A stretch of 58,614 nucleotides of DNA, the filler included, from Sphacelaria rigidula (taxonomy: Eukaryota), in the NCBI GenBank assembly GCA_964200075.2. It is 5 parts of 5 records of this genome, joined end to end, with 100 filler letters (N's around TTAATTAATTAA, not from the genome) between each part and the next. Parts side by side here need not be neighbours in the genome. Positions count along the whole stretch, not along the records: positions 46,973 to 58,614 come from CAXNAA020004674.1; 4 more parts are not named here. One strand, written 5' to 3'. Positions within the stretch are counted from its first letter, which is position 1; each line of letters opens with the position of its first letter. The notes under the pieces were generated by a model, which had not been told where the DNA came from, made no database searches, and saw nothing but the letters and a program-made list of their open reading frames with translations. The position numbers and the translations under genes were made by a program. Shown one piece after another: positions 11,830 to 58,614 of the stretch.

Positions 11830-12480
11830 CTGTTTCGGCTAAAGATGGCGGCGGCGGAAGAGAGCGCAGCGGCGCCTCCCACGTGACTTCGCGAGTTTCG
11901 ATTATGTACCCTTCCCGCGTCAACGTGCAGCAAGAGTCCCGTGGACGTTCGCGTGAAGGCCCGAGATAGGAACAGCTTTCGGCCTCGGGTAGAAGCTGTG
12001 ACAGCTGCTTCCATCTGCAGCATGCCGGCTGGAGAAAGGGGTGTGGCCTGATCGGCACAGCCGTTCCGGACCATATCACGTTCCGTGATGTGCTATCGGG
12101 GTTGGAGGCCGGAGCAGTGCAATTGAGTTGTTCAGATGCCCAATGCATCACCTTGGCCCGTAGCTACTCGGTCTTCGGAAGCTGAACGTGGCCGAACATC
12201 ACCTTCGCTTGAATTCTAGCCGCCATTGCCGTTGCCTCGATGATACCTAGCCCACGCCCTGCAACGTCGTTACATTGGGGGCTATGGGCGGGGGTAATTT
12301 CCTTCTTGATCAACAGGTCATCACATACTGATCTAAATTTATCCCCAAAAAAGTCTTGCCCGTTGATAGATCACACAATGTGTGCTACCGAAGTAAAATC
12401 GTCAGCTCGCACACTGGCGAGGAAACGATGAAAGCCATGTATGAGTCAGGCTTTCGTGTCAAGGAATACGGCAAGGATCT
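11830..12480 (-). mobile_element. Degenerate Ty1/Copia integrase and SH3-like fragment
   Basis: Minus-strand translation includes MHWASEQLNCTA..NP and CSYLGPSRERPRDSCCTLTREGYIIETREVTWE, typical of the Copia integrase C-terminal region. Stops and frameshifts are present; boundaries are approximate. Confidence 0.7.
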
Positions 12481-12513
12481 CCGGCTGTAATCATCCTTGA
12501 TCATCACTGGGTC

Positions 12514-13077
12514 GTGTTTTCGTCGACAAAAGCCCCTGCGTGGAAGAATAGTCTCTCAATGTACGGTAGACAGTGTGGTCTGTTCGAGGCACACAACACA
12601 ACTCATGATGTACCGATTACAGAGATTGAAGTTGATCCGTCTGACATGGAAGAACAAGGTTATACCGCCACCCAGTTACAATCAGCCGAAAATTCCCGGC
12701 GGCATCTTCTCGAGTGTATGATCAGTAGCGATGTCCGAACCATAGCAACCGATACCGCATCTCCCAGTGAGGCGTGGCGCGCGTTGAACAACCACTTCTT
12801 CCCTCTGACCGATGCCCAAATCAACCTATATGAGCACATTTTTTTTAATTTAAGGTTGAACTCAGGAGAGGACCCGTACCTTTTCTTTGCTGCAGTAACG
12901 CGGACTGTTCGAGTACTGCACATGTTGGGCGTAAAGAAAGAGGGAAGACAGATATGTCCTGTGATGCTTGACGGGCTTCTGCCTGAGTACGATATTCTGT
13001 GCCAAAATCTGAGACTCCAGAATTCACGTCACAATGAACCGATAGAGCAACACGTGACAGTTGACCACAAAGGGTAA
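12514..13077 (+). mobile_element. Ty1/Copia gag-like fragment
   Basis: SPSEAWRALNNHF...FNLRLNSGEDPYLFFA...MLDGLLPEYD, a pattern typical of Copia gag (UBN2-type). Confidence 0.7.
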
Positions 13078-26843: not shown

Positions 26844-26896
<53 letters not shown>

Positions 26897-26953
26897 ATAC
26901 TCACACTCACTCACGCGCGCACGCACACGCACACGCGCACACACACACACACA
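26844..26953. repeat. (CA)n microsatellite, compound
   Basis: Direct inspection. Confidence 0.95.
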
Positions 26954-27014
26954 CCTGTCCATCGCCGCCCCATCCCCTCCTTTCCCTGAACGCCTCGATA
27001 CATACAGCAAACAG

Positions 27015-29076: not shown

Positions 29077-29148
<72 letters not shown>
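29077..29148. repeat. (AC)n microsatellite
   Basis: Perfect dinucleotide run. Confidence 0.97.
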
Positions 29149-30509: not shown

Positions 30510-33500
30510 TTACTTGATGTTCATCAAGACATTCCTGTGGTACCGGGAACTATCCTCAGGTAACGGTTTCGTCAGCACATCAGCGTGCTGTTGAGCGGTC
30601 GGGACAAACTCCACTCGAATGACCTGCTCAGACACCAACTCTCTCAAACGGTGATTGCGTATATCTATATGCTTACTGTTGTGGGAGGTTCGCGTAATAT
30701 TCGCGAGCTAAATAGCTCCCTGGTTGTCCTCATGTACTGTCACCGGAATGGAAAACTTCTTCCTCTGCGGTTGCATAAATCTCACTACCTCCTTCACAAA
30801 AACAGCATCTTTCACCACATCCCCTATCGCTACATACTCAGCCTGAGTCGCGGACAACGTTGAATTTGAGTCCGACAGAAAAATCCGACCACAGCCTCAC
30901 AGAAACATATTGCCCCTCCCGACACTGAACCCCGATCGACGAATTTTGCGTAGTCAGCATCCGCATACGCTACCAACTAGTCGGTTCCTGACATACATAA
31001 TGCCTAGATCTGCCGTAGTCCTCAGGCATTTAAAAATCCTCAACACTTTGCGCTAGTCTTCTGCTGACGGGTTCTCGTTGTGCCTCGACGCAGCTCTCAC
31101 GACATAGGCGATGTCCGGGCAAGTATTGCCGTATATCCACATCAGCGTATACCCCCTCGCGATACCTCCCTCTCCCTCATCGACCTTGGAAGAAGGGGAA
31201 ACATTCGCGGGGGTAGCTGCGGCTCTAGTGATGAGAAAACCTCTCTCGAATCCGTTGGATATGTGTAGTGTGTGAAAACTTCAGAGCACCCTCCTCGAGG
31301 TCGTGCCTGTATTAGCACCCCTCATACACGACCAGTTCTCCAAGATATTTCGTCGGAAAGTGACAGTTGAGATCTATAGCCAATCTGTTGCACACAGCCT
31401 CATCACCCACCACGAACATGTCATCGACATGAACCATAATCAAAACCTCCTCCCCGCCCATTAACCTGTACATGCACGGATCAACCCAGCTCTGGTCGAA
31501 GCCCAGACTTTTCAGAGCCCAGAGTGTTCTCCATCTTCTCAAATAATTATCTAGCCGCTTGTCGAATCCCATACAAACTTTTCCTCAGGTGTACGACAGT
31601 ACCTGACCGTTCAGCTAGACCTGGTGACAATCGCATGTACACTTCATTATTCAGCTCAAATTGTACAAGAGCTTGCTCACCTTTGAAGTGAAAAATGTTC
31701 TTTCCATCGGCGCAAGCTACCCCGAGGTTGTTGAGGACCGGGTCGGTGGAAACGTTGCAATATCGCCAATCCCTTGACGATCACCCCTAAAATTCGGTGA
31801 AGCTTTTGCCTTCATCACATAACCATGCTCATCAGTCTTCCACTGAAAAACCCACTTAGAATCTATTGCTTTCTCTTCTACTGGCGGCGAGTCTCTCAAT
31901 CCCACCAAGAGTAAGATGTGGAATAACCTCCAACTCAGACTACCCTGATTGTTTTGGGTCGTCCGTGTCGCCCAGGAAAGCCAGTATCCTGTCCGCGCCC
32001 CACAAATCCACCCTCGACACCCACAACGCACTGTGATCGCCTTCTTGATGTTGTAGGTCAGAAACGTATTGATATAGTCGATGTTATTTGCGTTGTTGCT
32101 GTGGCAGTTGTGTCTGTTGCCTGGTCCGACCTAGCGTCGGCTCAACCGAACCTTGTTGGTTCGCGGCATCTCCGCCACCGACAGACGATGTCTCCCACGA
32201 ATCACGATCGGAAGATGGTGCACACGATGTAGACGACGTAGGCGACGCAGGCGGCTGCTCCACTGTGTTCTCGCCATCGTCGTTGTGTGGTCCCTGGTCA
32301 GGTTCCGACCGCTCATTGCCATCTCGTTCACACTCCTCGGACACCGCACCATCTGCGAATCCCCCACTCCGAGGAAGGTGGCTCTATTAGGAGTAGGAAC
32401 GGTGCTTCGTCTCGAAAGGGATGCGTGGTCAATGGTCAAACGACTAAGGCAAGCAGCAAATGAGTACCCCCCCACTCCGAGGTCCGACTCCCCTGAATCA
32501 AAGTCCTCGGCATCACCCTCCCCGCTCTTTACATCCTGCGAAATTTCCCCAACCCGCGTAGAAAACGGAAGCGCCGTCTGCCAGCTTGAAGGGGGGTAAA
32601 CGGCACCAAGTGACATTGCGGGTGGTGATGACATATCTACCCTTCGTGTGCGTCCTCATGAAGTCGCGAGGGTAGTTGTGACCAGGTCCTGAGTAAAAAT
32701 ACTCCTGTGCTTTGGGCATACACTTCGATGTCCTTTTCTACTCGACGTATCCTGGCTTGAAGAAAGGTAGAAGCTTAACCCGGGTTACTTCACCATCGTA
32801 TAGTTCATCTGGAGACTTCTCACCAGGGTTAGCCGTTGTAGCAGAGCGGTTTATCGTGTCTGGTACCCAACGATACGATTCAGCCCTCATCCCGTCGGAA
32901 CATCAACACCGTACAGTACCTTCGCCTGGAGACGTGCAGCCATAGCGGCCTGCTCAACCATTGCTATCGCACGCTCAGCCACACCGTTATACTCAGGACT
33001 GTCTGGTGGAGTATATTACTGTCTAAGACCGCGTGTACTACACAGGTCGCTGAAAGACCCAGCAAACTCTTCACCACCGTCCGACCTCACAGTCTCCACC
33101 ACCGAGGGAATGAATGCACTGTGCTCCTATAGCTGCGAGGTACTGCTCGAATGCTCTCGTGGTGTCAGACTTGTGTTGACCGAAAAAATCCAGATTTTCC
33201 GCGAAAAACCATCCCGGAATTAGAAACGAATAGTTGGTACCACCCGTACTCTAGAAAAACTCCGGTCCGGACACATCCATGAACACTCGCTCAAACGGCT
33301 TTTCTGCTCTAGTGTTGGTTAAAGTCGGAATGGGCTCCGGCAGCCCCTTCGTCATAGAGCACCCCTTGCACTCCTCCAACTTTCCCACCAGAGTCGTCCC
33401 CTGCTGTTTCGCTGTTTCCCGCAACAAGCCTTCATGCAGGTGGCAATGAGACCGATGAAAGAGTTGATGCCCACCAGATCCAGGTTGATTTATATTATTC

Positions 33501-50525: not shown

Positions 50526-53500
50526 GTGCAAAGTCTGCCCTTTCTGCTATTCCACAATCGAGAGTTGAATCATTCGGTCATTCATTGCAAGTGTACTCGC
50601 GTAGCCAGAATTATGCTCGTCATAGATGAAAACAGTGAAGACATTCATGGCGGGTTATTGATAGTCACACAGCTGGTGGACATCAGTTGATGGGTGACTT
50701 ACAGTATCATCTGGATCACAAGTTTGGTGTGGTCGTGTATCGTTCCAGTAAAGGTTACCGAATCGGCTATGGAAATAAGCACAATTGCGGAACACCCGTT
50801 GAATGGAATGGGAAAATGAGTAGTAAGGCGGTCTAGACGTACGCAATTGGGACTTCCCGAAGAAAACACGGGGAAATGCTCATTTAATGATAAGTACCCA
50901 GATGTGGCGGGACATGATTGCCGGATCACCCGTTCGAGCGAGAAAGAGTAAAATTTATTGTTTTTTGCTCATATATCGAGTGAGTTGAACCTTGTTCCGG
51001 TTCGATATTTGTACTGAGAAGAACTCAGAATTTGCATTCAATGTGTAGGATATTGAGCAGTGAGCTGAGGTGGATCACTTTTTTCTTGGCTTTGAACAGC
51101 TTGTGGCCACGTCCACCTCCGGCATTCTCCTTACTTCTCCGTCTTCATTTTTTCCTGCCCTTTCTCTCACATCTATGTGTGAGCTGTTTGTAATAGCCAA
51201 TAAGCACCACTTTCAAAACCAATCTGTCTTCGATTCGAGTGTTTTCGACAGCACGTTGTGCGCTCTCAGGACTTTTTCGAGTCCGTGCCACATGCTCTAA
51301 GCCTTTTCATTCGAGAGCGAGGTGCGGGCGAGTCAGGACATTATCTTCGCCTGTTGGGCAGTTGTGCTGGAATATTTAGAATGCAACCGAAACGACATAC
51401 TTCATGGCCCTCATGAGGTGTAGCCTGGCTGCCTACACGTGGCAGCCTACACGGCGCACCGTGAGCACCACATGGAACAAGGGCCGTCGCACTAATCTCC
51501 TGCTTCTTGGGTTTGTCATCACAAACAGTGGATTTTTAAATGTGCCTGTCAATAAAATGGTGCCAACTGGTATCTGAAATAGCAGCACCAGGTGACTACC
51601 TGTGCGAAGCGTTTTGGCACACTCATATGAGTTTGTGTTCTCGTAACGGTCTGTGGGGAATACCCATTTTTTTTTGTGGCAGCGGTGCCCGCCATTCGTC
51701 GTGGCTATTGGAATTCTTTACTAGAACTGCTTTTTCTGGGAACAAAAAGGTTGCACCGAATTCTTTCCGGTCACCTGTATTCAGATGCTCATTATCAATA
51801 TACTGTCTGTCGCACAAAAATTATCATCATGCACCGACAATCAACACACTCAAAAGCAATAAGAGCCACAACGACTGTTGTGTATGAAATGATGCAGAAG
51901 AGATTGTTGCGACTACGCCCTTGTTTGGAGCTGTTAGAAGAACCATGAGAGTCCGCCCGCCAGGCAAATGTTTCTTGCGCGACATGAAATCTGGTAGCTC
52001 TGCCGCAACAAACAGCACAGTGCAGTATTGACATTATGTTTGGAAACCTACAAATGGCCGTGGCAGCCAGAGGGCAGCTGTACCGTCAGAAGTAGCGTTG
52101 GCGAAGACACAGATTGCATTTGCTCCAGGAGTAGTGGATGCACTCCAGCTGAAACAAATCTTCACTGGTTACACGCGTTATTTATTCCCGCGGCCGAACA
52201 AAGCACCGCCTTTTTTTACGGGTCATCTGTTCCGTCCTTAGTGACAACAACTTCGTCCGGTGCTGTGACCCACTTGATATACCGCGTAAATATGCGAGAT
52301 TCATCAACTATTAGTAACTACGCGACGTGGCCCTTTCAAAAAGCAATCGAGTATTCACGATCATTTTGTTTTTTTTTCTGCCGTGCGGTGGTTATGTTTT
52401 GGGGTGTACACAACTGAACTGCCGAATGAAAAGGTGTCCCCCGGGCCCTTACGTGCATAATCGACAAATGATGCGCGCAGGTTGCCCCGTGGAAAACATA
52501 GTATGCGTGCAAAGCAGTTCGTTTGTGGTATTTTTCGTCAAGCACCAAGTGCGTCGCTTCGTCTCCTGTCACACCCGAACGGTCCCCAAGTAAATACTGT
52601 GCACACTCAGCAGCCGATGAAGAACCGAGGGCTGCCCTTAGAAAGGAACAGAAGTCGTCATATACGCCGTCGTGGTAGCATCATTCCGATGAATGTCCAA
52701 AAGATGAAAATATAGCACGCTGCACAAGCCATGTATGAGAGCCGCATCTTGCATCGTAATCGCAGCTTCACACTACCTCCAACTACCGACAGTCTTCGAG
52801 TAGTTGTAAGCCCTTGGTGTGTGAAAATAGAAATGACGGGCAAAAAGAGAAGTCGAACATTTTGATGTACATGTGTGCTCGTGGGTGTAAGGGGTCGGGG
52901 TTCCCCGCCAGACTACTCGAATTTGGTACTGCCCTCAACGCGGAATTCACCAGGTAAATGACCTCGTACCGAGAACGAGCAAGCAGATGCATCAACTTGC
53001 CTTTTGCTGTGTAAGGGGTCACGGTACAAAAAATTGAGCCTTGAGGACACGAGTACCTGCGGTGCTATCTTGGCTATCACCTTTCCCGGTCAAGAGGCGC
53101 TGGAATACCAACCTCGTGTGTGGAAAGATGAGTGACCACTGGTATTTGATGGTCAAGATCTGGTAAATCTCTCCGCGACACACTTTCGAATTTTGGGGAA
53201 TGTCGGCCCGCGGACGAAACATGAAAAAAACAAGATATATGGCGTGGAGGGACTGGAGGCAGGGTCAGATCTCCACCGGTTTGGTGTTGGTTCTTTACAA
53301 GAGTAGCTGGTGGCATGCTGTAAACAGTCGCCAAGTCTGAGCGGACAGACACGGACATGCAAACGAGTGAAACGATACAGGTAGTGGTATATTTCTCACT
53401 CACCCTGCGGGTATACAGTTTTTCTCACACCATTGAATGTGTGATGATATGCGAACGATGGGAAGCTAGATCTTCCATTCCTACAAGATCAACTCATGAC

Positions 53501-54653
53501 ATCGTGCTGATCTGAGTTTTCTCGAGGTGTTGACAATATAGAGCATCATGCACACTCAAGTCCTCTGGTTCTGCGCAGACGATCGTTGTTGCTCGAGACG
53601 GCATGCTATCTGGATCACAAAACTGGAAAATGATGAACATGTTATGATCGGTACCGTTAGTTACACTGCTTTACTCACTTATTGGTGATATTGATGCCGT
53701 ATGGAATAGCGGGCACAGCTTTCGAAGCTGCTCGGAAAGCAGGTCCGCTACCGTCTGCATGACATTTGGCATGGATGTTCATGATATGAGCATGTACTGG
53801 AGGCCACCCTCCGCTCGGTGGCTCAGCCAGTGTCACGTTCTTCTACACCAGGCACGGCGATCGGACAATACACCATACACCATCCCCACGTTCGTGAACG
53901 CTGCAGTGAATTGAGAGTGACCCAAACAATGTTGATGTCATTTCTCCGATCCCAGGTGTGCACGAATGAAAACATCGCAAGAGGGTATTCAGGTGACCTG
54001 CAGCATTGAGTTGTCGTCGTCACGTGCTGAACAATGGTGCGTACCTGCGGCACAATTTCGGCCGCCGACGGTTCCAAAGCTGCACGAACTAGCAGCGCTG
54101 AGGTCGGCATGGAGACGGCAGTAGGTGAGCAGGGGCTCAACGAGCGGTGGAGTGCGTGCATGCCATGAAGGATGAAACGCATGCAGTTGCCACTACTGTA
54201 CAAGGACTACATCTCAGCGCATTTTCGCATCCTCGAGCACGAACGCTTGCGCGCGAAATAGTTTCGTATGTTTGAATTTTTTCATCGACTGGTGTATTGA
54301 CACGCATTCCACATAAGGCAACTGCACATGTTCGATGGGCCACAGCTACCCCACACCACGAAATGAACGCTTAAAGTATACCTCACGTCTGAACCAATCT
54401 GCACTAACTTTAATTGATACAAATATCGCGTGTCACCGTTGGCAAGTTTGAAGTTGTCAACGATAATACGCCATCACTACCTTCCAGCCATGCACATGAC
54501 GGTGGAAACGGACGGAGGATCGGCCGTGATGTGTCCATTCTTGCAGCCTGCTTCTTCGTATTTGAATATAGTCCCATTCCTTCGTCGTGGGTGCAGCATG
54601 TGTCCTGGCCTAGTTTATGTCATCAACTTGCTTGATTTATTCGAGCTCAACTG

Positions 54654-56909
54654 GTGAAGTGCTCGTTACATGTTCTTGTCCCAGGCAGCGATCTTGGTCT
54701 GGAGGTTTTGACCACTGCCCTCAACCAGAGGTCCGCCGTGGGTGAGCCGTATTTGCCGACGAAGCAGCTACAGCTAGCTTCACTACAGCTCTGCATCGCC
54801 TGTCGCAGCTTAAGCACCCTGCGCGTGAAATGTGATCGGTTTACACCGCGCAGGCTATGGATGGACACCACCGATCAATTTACGACTGTGATAACTGGAA
54901 GTAGGAGCCGCACTGATGTAACTCGAGTGCCTCTGTTACGAGCACGCAGTGTGTTGTGGATGTCGTCTGCTGACGCGGCGTTCATGGCTCGCGAGACCCA
55001 CCTCTTGGCCAATGTGCAAAGCGTGTACTTCGACAACACATTCAATCGTAGTCTGGACTGTGTGGTGTGGCCGCCGCAACTAAGGAAGATTGTGTTTTGG
55101 AGGAGGGGCCTGGCGGGGTTCAACCAACCCATTCTGAACGTGGTTTGGCCTGTGTCGCTGCAGCAGCTGACGTTTGGAGATTCCTTTACCCAGCCGATCG
55201 AGGATGTGGCTTGGCCCCCCTCGTTGCATCTACTAACGTTCGGAGAAGACTTCAACCAGCCGATCGGGAGTGTGGCATGGCCTGCGTCACTGCAGCAGCT
55301 GACGTTCGGTGATTCCTTTAACCAGCCGATCGACAGCGTGGCTTGGCCTGCCTCGCTGCAACAGCTGGCGTTCGGATATTTCTTCAACCAGCCGCTCGGC
55401 GGTGTGTCATGGCCTGCATCACTTCAGCAGCTGACGTTCGAAACTTGCTTTGACCAGCCGATCGAGGGTGTGGCATGGCCTACGTCACTGCAGCAGCTGA
55501 CGTTGGTCGGTCACTTCAACCAGTCGATCGAGAATGTGGCATGGCCGACGTCGATGAAGCAGCTGATGTTGAGAGGTAACTTCAACCAGTCGATCGAGAA
55601 TGCGGCATGGCCGACGTCGCTGCAGCAACTGACCTTTGGATATAGCTTCAACCAGCCGATCGAGGGTGTGGTATGGCCTGCGTCGCTGCAGCGTCTGACG
55701 TTGGGATGTAACTTCAACCAGTCGATCGACGGTGTGTCATGGCCTGTGTCGCTGCAGCAGCTGTCTTTCGGTTATGCCTTCAACCAACTGATCGAGGGTG
55801 TGTCATGGCCTGCGTCACTGCAGCAACTAGTGCTCGGACATGACTTCAACCAGCCGATCGAGGGCATCGCATGGCCTGCGTCGCTGCAGCAACTAGAGTT
55901 TGGAGGTGACTTTAACCAACCGATCAAGGGCGTGGCATGGCCTGCGTCGCTGCAGCAACTGACGTTTGGAGTTGACTTCAACCAGCCGATCGAGGACGTG
56001 GCATGGCCTGCGTCGCTGCAGGAATTGGCATTGGGAAGTCGCTTCAACCAGCCGATCGAGGGTGTGTCATGGCCTTCGTACCTGCAGCAGCTGAGGCTCG
56101 GGAAAGGCTTCAACCAGCCGATCGAGAGTGTGGCATGGCCTGCGTCGCTGCAGCAGCTGACGTTAGAATTTTACTTCAACCAGCCGGTAGAAGGTGCGTC
56201 ATGGCCTGCGTCGCTGCAGCAACTGGCGTTCGGATATTGCTTCAACCAGCCGATCGAGGGTGTGGTATGGCCGGTGTCGCTGCAGAGGCTGACGATCGAA
56301 GGTTACTTCAACCAGCCGATCGAGGGTGTGGTGTGGCCTGCGTCGCTGCAGCAGCTGACGTTCGGACATAGCCTCAATCAGCCGATCGAGGGTGTGGCAT
56401 GGCCTGCGTCGCTGCAGCAGCTGACGTTCGGGCGAGATTTCGACCAGCCGATCGAGGGTGTGGCGTGGTCTGCGTCGCTTCAGCAGCTGACGTTCGGAGA
56501 TTACTTTAATCAGCCGATCGAGGGTGTTGCATGGTCTGCGTCGCTGCAGCAGCTGACGTTCGGAACTGGCTATGACCAGCCGATCAAGGGCGTGGCATGG
56601 CCTGCGTCGCTACAGCAGCTGACATTCGGTTATTCCTTCAACCAGCCGGTCAAGGGTGTGGCATGGCCTCCATCGCTGCATCAGTTAACTTTTGGAGGCT
56701 GTTTCAACCAGCCGATCGAGGGTGCGGCTTGGCCTACGTCGCTGCAGCAGCTGACGTTTGGATATAGCTTTAACCAGCCGATCACGGGTGTGTCATGGCC
56801 TGCGTCGCTGCAGCAGCTGACGCTCGGGAAATACTTCAAACGCCCCATCAAGGGTGTGACATGGCCTGCGTCGCTGAAGCGGCTGACGTTCGGATATCCC
56901 CGAAACTAG
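54654..56909 (+). CDS. FNIP/IP22-type leucine-rich repeat protein
   Basis: 751-codon open frame with 27 uninterrupted 22-aa repeats FNQPIEGVAWPASLQQLTFGxx (55119-56900), plus one degenerate N-terminal repeat. The true start is uncertain: first in-frame ATG at 54861, or an exon starting after CCCAG at 54685. Confidence 0.9.
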   Translation: MKCSLHVLVPGSDLGLEVLTTALNQRSAVGEPYLPTKQLQLASLQLCIACRSLSTLRVKCDRFTPRRLWMDTTDQFTTVITGSRSRTDVTRVPLLRARSVLWMSSADAAFMARETHLLANVQSVYFDNTFNRSLDCVVWPPQLRKIVFWRRGLAGFNQPILNVVWPVSLQQLTFGDSFTQPIEDVAWPPSLHLLTFGEDFNQPIGSVAWPASLQQLTFGDSFNQPIDSVAWPASLQQLAFGYFFNQPLGGVSWPASLQQLTFETCFDQPIEGVAWPTSLQQLTLVGHFNQSIENVAWPTSMKQLMLRGNFNQSIENAAWPTSLQQLTFGYSFNQPIEGVVWPASLQRLTLGCNFNQSIDGVSWPVSLQQLSFGYAFNQLIEGVSWPASLQQLVLGHDFNQPIEGIAWPASLQQLEFGGDFNQPIKGVAWPASLQQLTFGVDFNQPIEDVAWPASLQELALGSRFNQPIEGVSWPSYLQQLRLGKGFNQPIESVAWPASLQQLTLEFYFNQPVEGASWPASLQQLAFGYCFNQPIEGVVWPVSLQRLTIEGYFNQPIEGVVWPASLQQLTFGHSLNQPIEGVAWPASLQQLTFGRDFDQPIEGVAWSASLQQLTFGDYFNQPIEGVAWSASLQQLTFGTGYDQPIKGVAWPASLQQLTFGYSFNQPVKGVAWPPSLHQLTFGGCFNQPIEGAAWPTSLQQLTFGYSFNQPITGVSWPASLQQLTLGKYFKRPIKGVTWPASLKRLTFGYPRN
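55119..56900 (+). repeat. 27 x 66-bp coding tandem repeat
   Basis: Consensus TTCAACCAGCCGATCGAGGGTGTGGCATGGCCTGCGTCGCTGCAGCAGCTGACGTTCGGA-NNT-NNC. Confidence 0.97.
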
Positions 56910-57044
56910 CCGATTTAAGGAGTTATTTGGCCTGCGTACGTGGAGCGGGTGACGTTGGGATATAGCCTCAACCAGTCGATCGAAGTTGTGCCGCCACGTG
57001 TGTTTCTGGCTCGTCAGATCGAAAAAAGTAGCTTCTAGTAGCTG

Positions 57045-57111
57045 AGGGTTGGGGTTAGAGTTCCCTAACCCCTAACCCTAACCCTAACCCTAACCCTAAC
57101 CCTAACCCTAA
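57045..57111. repeat. Interstitial telomere-type repeat
   Basis: Eight CCCTAA units at 57063-57111, preceded by degenerate opposite-strand units AGGGTTGGGGTTAGAG. Confidence 0.9.
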
Positions 57112-58340
57112 GCGTGCGGCGTGGTGACCTGCTCGTGTGCAGCAGCTCACGTTCATGGCGCATTTTATTCGGTCAGTCGAGGCTAGAGCTTGGCTTGTGT
57201 TGATCTAGTACCTGACATTATGGCGGCGGGGTTTGATATCCAAACGATAGTCGTCGACGTGTACAGGCTAGTCTAGCCAGTCAGTGGAGTGTACTCCCGA
57301 CTCTCTATGGGTACTAATTACGTTCGTCCAGTACGTTGACTGTAAAACGTTGTACTCTTTGTACACCCAATTCGGACGGTAAGATAACCAAAACAGCTGC
57401 CTGAAGAATTAGCTGGCGAGCCGCGGGCGATATTCCAGCCAATCGTTGGGGAACAAGCTGCGTCGTTGTTGTCGGAGTTATTGTTCGTGTGTTGTTTCCC
57501 TGCTGGTGTATCTGATGCTGATCCCTCTCGTGGTCCCAAGGTATCAACCCAGAGTAGATTGTTGTTCAGTCCCCGGTGCGCAGGCTCTGTAGAGCACCTC
57601 TTTAAACAGCGCTCCAGACAGTAGGTATATTTTGGGACTGGTCTCTGTTCTCTGCGACAGTTTAGATTATCGGCTCAGTTGCTGTTACTACTCTGTATAC
57701 ACCAGTACGTGGCGAAGTAGTCGGGGAGGTCACACGTGGGGACGGATTCCAGTACAAGTAGGTCTCTGTAATTCAATCGGTCTCATACGGATCTTTCGTA
57801 GTGTAGGTGCCATTTTTTCGTTTAGATGTTTTGTTTCTTGCCTTCTTCTGTGGGCTGTTTGGGTTATGGGTATGGGTGGTATGCTCCATGCACTCTGTGG
57901 TGACACGGGTTCGAAAGATCGAGCTAATGTGACGGATATAATGATGAAGAATAATAAAGTTGTAACAGAAGTAGGAGGAGTCACAAATATCAACAGACAC
58001 GATGTTTTTTTTATTTATTCAATTCCATATAAAAATATTATTATTATTACTATTTATTAATATAATTCCTAGATATTCCTTAGTTATTTAAAAATAATCG
58101 ATTTTTAATTTGAAGAATTACTATTTTTTTTCTTGTTATTATAAATATAAAAGTGATTGAAGAAGAATGAAAAATAGTTACCCTAGAAGATCTGATGCGG
58201 CAGATGACCAGTAAGGGTGAATAAGAGGGGAGTCCACCGCCCACACTCAGTACGCGAAGCTAAGAAAAAGAAAAGGAAACTACCAACATGAGGTTACCCA
58301 GATGATCAAAGCTCCATGATTCTATCCCCCCCTACTGGCG

Positions 58341-58614
58341 GGGATGATGAAATTCTTTGATGCATTAGACAAAAGGGAGAACACGATGGCTTTACTGGGA
58401 GATGATTGGTGGCCAGAGACGGCGATACAGGACGGGGATAAGACGTGTTGAAGGTTTTTGTGTAATGTATGGAAAAAACGTAATGAGCTGGTGAAGAAAC
58501 GTGGTGAGCGTCAGAATGTAGGAGGTGTCTCTATCAGGAGTAGGAACAATGCTTCGTCTTGAAAGGGATGCGTGGTCAATGGTCAAACGACTAAGGCAAA
58601 CAACAAATGAGTAC
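58341..58614 (+). mobile_element. 5'-truncated family A retroelement running to the contig end
   Basis: Aligns with about 19632-19886 (TTGATGCATTAGAC...GGTGGCC...GAAAGGGATGCGTGGTCAATGGTCAAACGACTAAGGC...TGAGTAC). The left flank begins with C7 (58326-58332). Confidence 0.85.

Follow-up and report, generated by a model that had tools for sequence, protein, structure and literature searches.

Brown algae, dictyostelids, dinoflagellates and giant viruses have very large families of proteins with FGxxFN (FNIP) leucine-rich repeats (LRRs), none with a known function. Two FGxxFN LRR proteins of Cafeteria roenbergensis virus, CroV539 (7ZAL) and CroV588 (6NYR), are described in Huyton et al. 2022 (PMC9525666). 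At the protein level, it is already known from that work that the two xx residues are the most variable spot of the repeat, located on the rim of the concave face; the same paper defines a WP sub-class, in which FNQ is followed by a proline and a WP dipeptide stands towards the end of the repeat. For brown algae, 100 or more FNIP proteins are reported (PMC4421812, PMC9525666). The algal locus analyzed here is a clean single-gene case in which the xx rim has changed several times faster than silent sites and the scaffold is conserved.

The gene, its putative transcript and its predicted product

The window, that is, the whole stretch of 58,614 nucleotides (filler included) that was analyzed, comes from the assembly of Sphacelaria rigidula (GCA_964200075.2). 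The first-pass annotation had placed the array at 55119..56900; the 27 units in this interval stand, but the clean end at 56900 does not, because decayed units follow beyond the stop codon at 56907-56909. The following features, all on the plus strand, were delineated.

53953..54124, plus strand: upstream exon with the likely start codon ATG 54034 (contigs of runs X2 and X5; reading frame)
54125..54684, plus strand: intron of 560 nt, GT..AG (contig joint 54122->54683, cut +2)
54685..55118, plus strand: first part of the large exon, unique and N-terminal, with one or two degenerate FN/WP cap repeats at its end (Pfam, homologue search, model)
55119..56900, plus strand: 27 tandem 66-bp units of 22 aa each, FGxxFN/FNIP LRR, WP sub-class (repeat finding, Pfam, alignment)
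56901..57035, plus strand: decayed continuation of the array, units 28 and 29 (alignment to the consensus; contigs of four runs)
57063..57111, plus strand: interstitial telomere-like repeat, (CCCTAA) x 8, between array remnants (period 6, 8.0 copies, 97% matches)
57117..57220, plus strand: about 1.6 more decayed units on the far side of the telomere-like repeat (score 57 in a local alignment to the consensus unit)

The gene appears to be transcribed and spliced, because contigs of two runs join across the GT..AG intron as a spliced mRNA would. X2 and X5, which come from two studies, each have one contig with the joint 54122->54683, the shorter side being 170 letters; these contigs cover 53953-54122 and then continue from 54683 onwards. 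X1 and X8 lack the joint, and their contigs extend without a break through 52000-55169. As evidence of splicing we count the contig joint only and leave aside the holes in the coverage of X2 and X5 (52000-53767 and 54210-54651); that these two runs are RNA is a guess. In-frame stops lie just upstream of ATG 54034, inside the same exon. A CAG at 53953-53955, preceded by a pyrimidine tract, suggests that a splice acceptor lies at this point and that there is another 5' exon elsewhere; the contig of X2 continues past 53953 for 24 more letters. All 27 units reside within one exon. The surroundings are gene-poor DNA of eukaryotic, probably brown-algal, origin, and an Rfam search of the window produced no match.

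At the 3' side, unit 28 is identical to the consensus at 44 of 66 positions and contains two in-frame stops, the TAG at 56907-56909, which is the present stop and takes the place of a Gln codon in a repeat, and a TAA at 56916-56918. Unit 29 (36/66 identical) runs into a short non-repeat tail with two stops. The stops are present in the sequence as read, because the contigs of all four runs over 56798-57058/57059 carry no other letter. Judging from this arrangement, the original C-terminal end of the gene, including the C-terminal cap, appears to have been lost to decay, and because of this apparent loss, present function is not assured.

By its sequence, the gene is a member of the known FNIP/FGxxFN LRR family. 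The Pfam FNIP profile (PF05725) matches in 18 stretches with E=4.4e-126 and a score of 411.3 bits (cut-off, 21); across the whole ORF, nothing else exceeds the Pfam cut-off, including NB-ARC, NACHT, ROC-COR and TIR. The match to CroV588 (6NYR) is gap-free over 558 residues (E=2.1e-112), and CroV539 (7ZAL) is matched with E=3.1e-63. With a proline after FNQ (position 4, 23 of 27 units) and a WP dipeptide (W10 in 27/27, P11 in 25/27), the array falls into the CroV539 (WP) sub-class. The N-terminal head matched no Pfam family at E<=10 and none of 868 candidates, 407-1295 residues in length, proved homologous to it at E<=0.001.

The AlphaFold model (mean pLDDT 72.5; 70-94 across the array and <50 for model residues 1-107) places a strand every 22 residues, and thus a curved LRR solenoid with one short strand per repeat is predicted. 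The best Foldseek match of this predicted model is 6NYR_A (E=2.7e-30, TM 0.66/0.71). The proposal of an FNIP-type LRR solenoid, made from the DNA at first pass, is therefore borne out by the Pfam hit, the 6NYR alignment and the fold match. The accompanying term 'receptor', in the sense of a surface protein, is not supported by the predicted 771-aa product, which has no hydrophobic segment (highest 19-residue hydropathy, 0.94). In the gap-free alignment to CroV588, the variable residues map onto positions 8-9 of FGxxFN; their placement on the rim follows from the alignment to 6NYR together with PMC9525666.

Variation among and within the repeat units

Tandem Repeats Finder reports one array at 55146-56894 (period 66, 26.5 copies, 78% matches, 0% indels). 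Cut from 55119, it resolves into 27 in-frame units of exactly 66 bp each, in which the xx codons are the last six bases (codons 21 and 22; columns 61-66). The scaffold is well kept, with F1 in 25 units, N2 in 22, G20 in 22, and F19 in 18 (L in 8, I in 1). By contrast, 25 of the 27 xx hexamers are distinct, and the previously listed residue pairs (DS, ED, DS, YF ... KY, YP) agree exactly with this cut. Tyr accounts for 11 of the 54 xx residues, and G and T dominate base 1 of the xx codons (Asp/Gly against Tyr). The private variants noted earlier in units 7-8 and 21-22 are present, and the claim that neighbors share history is upheld by unit trees, which group u07+u08 and u20-u22 as recent duplicates; non-neighboring units, such as u15+u26, are grouped as well.

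Bases 1 and 2 of both xx codons take all four nucleotides, as the first-pass annotation stated: columns 61, 62, 64 and 65 each contain every base, and their entropies (1.86, 1.55, 1.85 and 1.67 bits) are the four highest among the 66 columns, followed by 1.51 and 1.20. The wobble counts reported there are also correct (column 63, T22/A4/C1; column 66, C25/T2), but these bases are not unusually fixed, given that the majority base at the other third positions occurs in 22.5 units on average (range 16-27). The argument that neutral drift would produce the opposite pattern is not supported: the xx wobble base behaves as any third position inherited from one founder unit. Of the two causes considered for the wobble bias, codon usage and repeat expansion from a founder, the former is discounted. 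Two-fold codons of the unique N-terminal part end in T and C in a 13:12 ratio, as opposed to 14 T to 0 C at codon 21 and 14 C to 2 T at codon 22; among four-fold codons, T is kept in 7/9 at codon 21 and C in 8/8 at codon 22. The sequence pattern is that of an ancestral wobble, derived from the founder unit, rather than a codon-usage effect. Gene conversion presumably could not homogenize column 63 alone, because it is flanked by variable bases. The third variable site proposed earlier, the residue that follows LQQL, does vary (T19, A3, and one each of M, S, V, E and R), without an excess of amino acid change (beta/alpha 0.2, no faster than silent sites).

The mean pairwise difference p is 0.689 at xx bases 1-2, compared to 0.285 at scaffold third positions (n=20), 0.286 at four-fold sites and 0.234 at the xx wobble bases. 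The corresponding Jukes-Cantor distances are 1.88 and 0.36 for xx bases 1-2 and silent sites, respectively, so that the excess amounts to 2.4-fold when expressed as p and to about 5-fold when corrected. For the 14 unit pairs that are closest to each other, the values of p are 0.75 (xx bases 1-2) and 0.139 (third positions). Fitch parsimony yields 14, 10, 13 and 14 changes at the xx columns against a mean of 3.75, counts that recombination among units would inflate, on trees that are built from 60-66 columns and poorly resolved. In a home-made FEL-like codon test with kappa fixed at 2, beta greatly exceeds alpha at codon 21 (p=8.5e-5 with the scaffold tree and 5.5e-4 with the all-column tree); at codon 22, omega is 7.8 on the scaffold tree (p=0.0099) and 3.5, not significant, on the all-column tree (p=0.093). 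No other codon shows a significant excess of beta over alpha, and codons 1, 3, 13, 16 and 17 are significantly conserved. The gamma site rates from IQ-TREE, which are limited to the top category (2.5), give no magnitude. Pairwise differences, parsimony and the codon test concur with the earlier claim of positive selection at the xx codons, which change faster than silent sites. These sequence comparisons support germline diversifying selection at xx, and we infer that selection, not local mutation bias, drives the rate contrast.

The same contrast recurs elsewhere. Of 17 further FNIP arrays taken from metagenome contigs, 16 vary more at xx bases 1-2 than at scaffold third positions (median ratio 2.46, compared to 2.42 here), and within 24 of 50 proteins with at least 8 units, xx are the two most variable positions. 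What differs is the wobble, which is accelerated in 16/17 of these arrays (median ratio to third positions 1.9) as opposed to 0.82 in the present one; the NNT-NNC pattern is shared by just 1 of the 17. Among 33 named brown-algal matches, the repeat consensus is the same as ours except at two of the 22 positions, one of which belongs to xx, and K/E/Q/M/W occupy 18.5% of xx residues as opposed to 3/54 here (P=0.006). The best identities to relatives are 46-60%, with no near-identical protein in the collection searched. Viral contigs contributed 15 loci with 28-41% identity, none with at least 6 units in strict 22-residue register.

Contigs of the sequencing runs provide a view of variation at the locus, in which low-level variation may be missed because contigs drop rare variants. 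The pieces at 55148-56071 and 56594-57059, from four runs and three studies, carry no other letter, except for one piece with 18, most simply a paralogue. Run X8 has an A>G variant at 55180, in the second base of unit 1's first xx codon (depth 22.6 of 37.1); this variant stands 31 letters from a contig end and could be an allele or a paralogue. X1, X2 and X5 have other letters in unit 16, at the first two bases of its first xx codon (56169/56170), 32-33 letters from contig ends. Joints inside the array, with skips of 861, 612, 732, 928 and 162, none a multiple of 66, were considered as rearrangements and rejected in favor of paralogue or short-contig effects: three of the five are also found in the intron-covering runs, the other two (X2 or X5 alone) have a shorter side of 21-23 letters, and in several the two sides are separated by unknown or foreign letters.

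Selection, import and mutation as possible sources of diversity

We are fairly confident in the following account as a whole. The locus would be a nuclear gene from a eukaryotic, most likely brown, alga and would encode a soluble 771-aa protein with a short unstructured head and 27 FGxxFN repeats, which the model suggests curl into a large ring or horseshoe similar to that of CroV588. The array would have grown by tandem duplication of one 66-bp unit with xx codons ending in T and C. The scaffold would then have been held by purifying selection, silent sites including both xx wobble bases would have drifted by about 0.29 per site, and xx bases 1-2 would have been replaced several times faster because selection favored new rim side chains (Tyr, Asp, Ser, Gly, Cys and His). 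Such diversification would proceed in the germline, mutation by mutation, without a dedicated mutator, and the rim would be expected to bind a ligand, in a role that may be immune, that of a viral-derived adaptor or another.

A different possibility, to which we assign a small but real chance, is that the xx diversity is old and was imported by short gene-conversion tracts that brought existing hexamers from paralogous FNIP arrays, in which case the rate contrast within the array would overstate new mutation. Similar repeats are indeed numerous: at 90% likeness, array bins collect a summed contig depth of up to 4028 in a run whose flanks have about 28, which implies many such repeats elsewhere in the read sets, in line with the 100 or more FNIP proteins reported for brown algae in the papers cited above, and the grouping of non-neighboring units such as u15+u26 is compatible with import. 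However, nearly all hexamers are distinct, and import would bring in the wobble diversity of the family, whereas K/E/Q/M/W are depleted here and the wobble is as uniform as the other third positions. Even if import did occur, the family-wide diversity at xx would still have to be explained. That xx are loop residues drifting under relaxed constraint, without positive selection, would be consistent with their variability in every FNIP family examined (the top two positions in 24/50 proteins; PMC9525666). Unconstrained sites, however, cannot outpace silent sites, as xx do by the 2.4-fold and about 5-fold margins given above and by 5-fold in p among the closest pairs, and the wobble bases within or directly after the xx codons, which share their history, stay at the silent-site level; we regard drift alone as improbable.

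Targeted mutation, DGR-like or otherwise position-specific, that rewrites bases 1-2 of both codons is close to refuted, and we give it hardly any credence. NNT-NNC is the expected product of adenine mutagenesis of AAT-AAC, and a wobble-blind process would explain why wobble changes are not accelerated here, unlike in 16/17 other arrays. Nevertheless, scaffold columns with an A majority are near-invariant (columns 5, 8 and 44 are A in 26, 26 and 27 of 27 units), and the spectrum is shaped by residues, not by mutation type. The window contains no template copy of the unit with AAY-AAY, the three pattern matches being the array's own units, and none of its 34 ORFs of at least 150 aa has a reverse-transcriptase domain; mobile-element matches among these ORFs amount to one copia-type gag fragment and two sub-threshold ones. 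The doubt voiced at first pass about a DGR, that neither reverse transcriptase nor template was visible, proved justified and extends to adenine specificity within the window. In addition, the gene has an apparently spliced GT..AG intron, and the contig pieces over parts of the array, from four runs, are free of other letters apart from the one piece with 18.

Germline diversifying selection thus remains our preferred reading, with one qualification. Selection for any new residue predicts accelerated wobble transversions of the amino-acid-changing kind, and such acceleration is absent here, so that a preference for particular residues must be assumed. Because other FNIP arrays combine fast xx bases with variable wobble, the pyrimidine wobble of this array is probably a local oddity that reflects such a preference (Tyr, Asp, Ser and Gly). 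NNY codons can never become stop codons. It is conceivable, although we consider it a very long shot, that the pyrimidine-locked wobble marks either position-targeted mutation in the germline or second-order selection that favors stop-proof, highly evolvable codons, in a repertoire of FGxxFN rings that would serve intracellular recognition in brown algae.

Relation to known repeat-based recognition systems

The outward form of NNY-type variable codons is all that the array has in common with DGRs; no reverse transcriptase, template repeat or adenine specificity is seen in the window, and the setting is eukaryotic and apparently spliced. Parallels exist with LRR recognition modules under diversifying selection, namely those of plant NLRs and RLPs, lamprey VLRs and the LRR-ROCO and NB-ARC-TPR candidates of brown algae (PMC3341825, PMC11378527). 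In these, as in the present array, variable residues are located on or beside the concave beta-sheet of an LRR solenoid, units arise by duplication, and amino acid change exceeds silent change at the variable sites. Unlike NLRs and LRR-ROCO proteins, the product described here has no NB-ARC, NACHT, ROC-COR, TIR or other signaling domain; exon-per-repeat shuffling is not involved, all units being in one exon; and in contrast to VLRs, the array is complete and in frame, with no sign of somatic assembly in the contigs of four runs.

[quoted passage not shown] CroV588 aligns without gaps over 25 repeats, is the best fold match and forms a closed ring of 25 repeats plus caps, compared to 27 repeats here. 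The differences are that the CroV genes are viral whereas the present gene is cellular, intron-bearing and algal, and that identity to CroV588 is about 37-39%, the head is unrelated and the C-terminal cap is apparently decayed. Brown-algal FNIP relatives have a consensus that is alike at 20/22 positions, with far fewer K/E/Q/M/W at xx in our array. Although the locus opens no new mechanism, its rate contrast supports the published guess that the rim is a binding edge and makes the family a candidate fast-evolving recognition repertoire in algae, organisms whose immune systems are poorly understood.

The repeat array and its gene

Of all open frames in the window, the longest contains the repeat array at 55119–56900 (+), which Tandem Repeats Finder reported as a single array (55146–56894, period 66, 26.5 copies) free of indels. 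When cut from 55119, it yields 27 in-frame units of 22 residues each, and the residue pairs that close the units agree exactly with those listed in the first-pass annotation. These residues are encoded by codons 21 and 22 (columns 61–66 of the unit; hereinafter xx), and the other 20 codons form the scaffold. The 27 retained units contain no stops and no frameshifts and, because several scaffold codons are under significant purifying selection, we conclude that the array was functional for most of its history. A stop codon, TAG at 56907, occupies the position of a Gln codon of the repeat, with TAA three codons further on, and is followed by a decayed tail:

After the stop, + strand: rest of unit 28 (44/66 identity to the consensus), then a partial unit 29
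57063–57111, + strand: eight copies of CCCTAA, an interstitial telomere-like repeat inside the decayed array tail
Beyond the CCCTAA repeat, + strand: a further 1.6 recognizable units, by likeness to the unit consensus

The array was formerly longer, and its original C-terminal end has been lost. The CCCTAA repeat points to a past event at the 3' end of the gene, be it breakage, healing or rearrangement.

The gene model comes from Logan contigs of four public sequencing runs (X1, X2, X5 and X8) that were compared over 52000–58614. Contigs of X1 and X8 cover this region without a break. In one contig each of X2 and X5, which come from two studies, position 54122 is joined to 54683, skipping 560 nt with GT..AG ends, with 170 letters on the shorter side of the joint. 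The simplest reading of this joint is a spliced mRNA, the RNA nature of X2 and X5 being a guessed label. Reading through the joint, an ATG at 54034, directly after in-frame stops, opens a predicted product of 771 residues. An additional 5' exon is likely because the X2 contig continues past 53953 with 24 more letters, and a pyrimidine tract with CAG resembles a splice acceptor at this point. Contigs of X2 and X5 also extend over 56798–57059 and 57121–57731 or 57795; the transcript therefore continues through the stop and past it. A small reading frame upstream of the gene's own could begin at an out-of-frame ATG at 53966, which precedes the likely start within the exon. No hydrophobic segment was found in the 771-residue product (highest 19-residue hydropathy, 0.94). 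Its N-terminal head has no Pfam match, no detectable homologue among 868 candidates (E<=0.001), and a pLDDT below 50 in the predicted model.

Outside this gene, the window consists of eukaryotic DNA with few genes, in which microsatellites, minisatellites and a gag fragment of a copia-type retrotransposon occur; besides the latter, no further Pfam family scored above the cut-off among the 34 ORFs of at least 150 aa. The gag fragment (12445–13074 (+); PF14223, E=2.5e-06, 27.5 bits vs a cut-off of 27) is located just downstream of an N run near 11.7 kb; the window contains 352 N in total. The minisatellites at 1615–1797 (period 44, 4.2 copies) and 2579–2863 (period 43, 6.6 copies) have a common core sequence, and CA/AC dinucleotide microsatellites occupy 26844–26954 (55.5 copies) and 29077–29148 (36 copies). 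A very high-copy element occupies 57525–58614: in X1 and X8, contig depths that sum to about 28 in the flanks reach values from 48,000 to 2.3 million here. The depth is very high in X2 and X5 as well, and many loose ends enter long C tracts. This element, with an ORF peptide related to one at 32131–32655 (-), probably represents a satellite or other dispersed repeat family.

Substitutions at the last two codons of the unit

Column counts across the 27 units reproduced the pattern in the first-pass annotation, namely, a nearly fixed wobble base in both xx codons (column 63, T22/A4/C1; column 66, C25/T2), with all four nucleotides present at bases 1 and 2 of each (columns 61, 62, 64 and 65, the top four of the 66 columns at 1.55–1.86 bits). 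However, the wobble base, which had been taken for a special signal, is ordinary, and it is bases 1 and 2 that are informative. The majority base occurs in 16–27 units (mean 22.5) at the 20 scaffold third positions, compared to 22 and 25 units at the xx wobble columns. Between pairs of units, the mean difference is 0.234 for the xx wobble, 0.285 for scaffold third positions and 0.286 for 11 four-fold sites. Accordingly, the xx wobble behaves as any silent site that descends from a single founder unit. Codon usage was rejected as its cause: two-fold pyrimidine-ending codons show T:C of 13:12 in the unique head, as opposed to 14:0 in favor of T at codon 21 (P=1e-4) and 14:2 in favor of C at codon 22 (P=0.001). 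Four-fold codons at xx retain T in 7 of 9 cases and C in 8 of 8.

At bases 1 and 2 of xx, the pairwise p of 0.689 translates into a Jukes-Cantor distance of 1.88, compared to 0.36 at silent sites. This excess is independent of scaffold distance and amounts to 0.75 vs 0.139 at third positions in the 14 closest pairs. Fitch counts, which are inflated by recombination and were obtained on two trees built from very short alignments, were 10–14 and 8–12 changes per xx column vs third-position means of 3.75 and 3.85. In a home-made FEL-like codon test, with a fixed tree and kappa of 2, beta greatly exceeded alpha at codon 21 on both the scaffold tree (p=8.5e-5) and the all-column tree (p=5.5e-4); for codon 22, the respective values were omega 7.8 (p=0.0099) and omega 3.5 (p=0.093). 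No other codon of the 22-codon unit showed a significant amino-acid excess in this test, including codon 18, the proposed third diversified site (omega 0.2). Homogenization of the scaffold by gene conversion cannot explain the contrast because column 63, between the variable bases, presumably shares their genealogy.

A diversity-generating retroelement (DGR) is at odds with the near invariance of scaffold columns with majority A and with the splicing of the gene (the GT..AG joint). No AAY-AAY copy of the unit was found within the window, and the remark that no DGR reverse transcriptase or template is visible held for the entire window, including the 34 ORFs; targeted mutagenesis is, for practical purposes, rejected. 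Somatic assembly is likewise unsupported: in contigs, which would miss rare within-sample variants, the listed pieces over parts of the array match letter for letter in four runs from three studies, except for one X1 piece with 18 differing letters that we read as a paralogue. An NLR or ROCO-type receptor is contradicted by the lack of a signalling domain in Pfam searches of the ORF and the head; exon shuffling is a topic of papers on brown-algal LRR-ROCO genes (PMC3341825, PMC11378527). The initial proposal is partly supported: we retain a modular recognition-type protein, with a putative immune role, but not targeted mutagenesis. After duplication of the units, germline diversifying selection probably acts on the rim (xx) residues.

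Generality across FNIP arrays

Among the proteins of 50 homologues with at least 8 in-register units, 24 have their two most variable residues at xx, and xx entropy is the highest in each of four taxon groups. For the DNA comparison, 77 metagenome loci yielded 17 arrays with at least 6 units in strict register, two of which (L011 and L016) are near-duplicates. Bases 1 and 2 of xx vary more than scaffold third positions in 16 of the 17 arrays, with a median ratio of 2.46 (2.42 in the window); the xx wobble varies more than other third positions in 16 of 17, with a median ratio of 1.9 (0.82 in the window). The window array is therefore typical in the speed of xx and unusual in its near-exclusive NNY codons. 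The only comparison array like it, L051, shows 0.29 at the xx wobble vs 0.31 at other third positions, and 12 of its 14 wobble sites carry a pyrimidine. A further metagenome contig, L007, contains two FNIP arrays, with 11 and 9 units, in different frames (0 and 1); their consensus is nearly the same, and they could be two genes or one frameshifted array.

K, E, Q, M and W, whose codons require a purine at the wobble base, account for 3 of the 54 xx residues in the window, whereas their share among brown-algal relatives is 18.5% (P=0.006). The most common xx residues of the window array are Tyr (11), Asp (8), Ser (7), Gly (7), Cys (4) and His (3). We read the pyrimidine-only wobble, the one feature that lacks a full explanation, as a local residue preference. 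In addition, several wobble transversions are unavailable (Tyr and Cys codons change to stops) or conservative (Asp to Glu). Such a wobble in about 1 of 20 arrays is not remarkable, considering families of at least 100 genes and the selection of the most striking case.

Family and fold

The array matches Pfam FNIP with 411 bits (cut-off 21). Searching PDB sequences with phmmer retrieved CroV588 (6NYR; E=2.1e-112, 558 residues gap-free, with FGxxFN in register) and CroV539 (7ZAL; E=3.1e-63). A single-sequence AlphaFold model (mean pLDDT 72.5, array mostly 70–94) predicts one strand per 22 residues, spanning Q16–F19 of the unit; with this model, Foldseek ranked 6NYR_A first (TM 0.66/0.71), followed by ring-shaped TLR ectodomains. 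The named relatives, from Symbiodiniaceae, brown algae and Cavenderia, are 34–60% identical; giant-virus contigs are more remote (28–41%). The window consensus agrees with that of 165 units from 33 brown-algal homologues at 20 of 22 positions. One of the runs containing the locus carries an algae-metagenome label, and the DNA probably comes from a brown alga or a near relative.

Huyton et al. 2022 (PMC9525666) already place the most variable pair of the repeat at xx, on the rim of the concave face. That face itself is described as having a single variable residue, residue 5, which corresponds to codon 18, and a concave-surface binding mode is therefore called probable; 104 FGxxFN sequences, mostly of the WP type, are reported there for a brown alga. 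The Saccharina genome is reported to encode 121 FNIP proteins (PMC4421812), and a 2026 preprint counts FNIP as one of the largest brown-algal orthogroups of putative viral origin. Within the literature searched, we found no analysis of selection on FNIP arrays at the level of codons. The repeat of the window also has the Pro and WP by which the CroV539 sub-class is defined. Taken together, the array is a new member of the known FNIP/FGxxFN family that displays a known property with unusual clarity.
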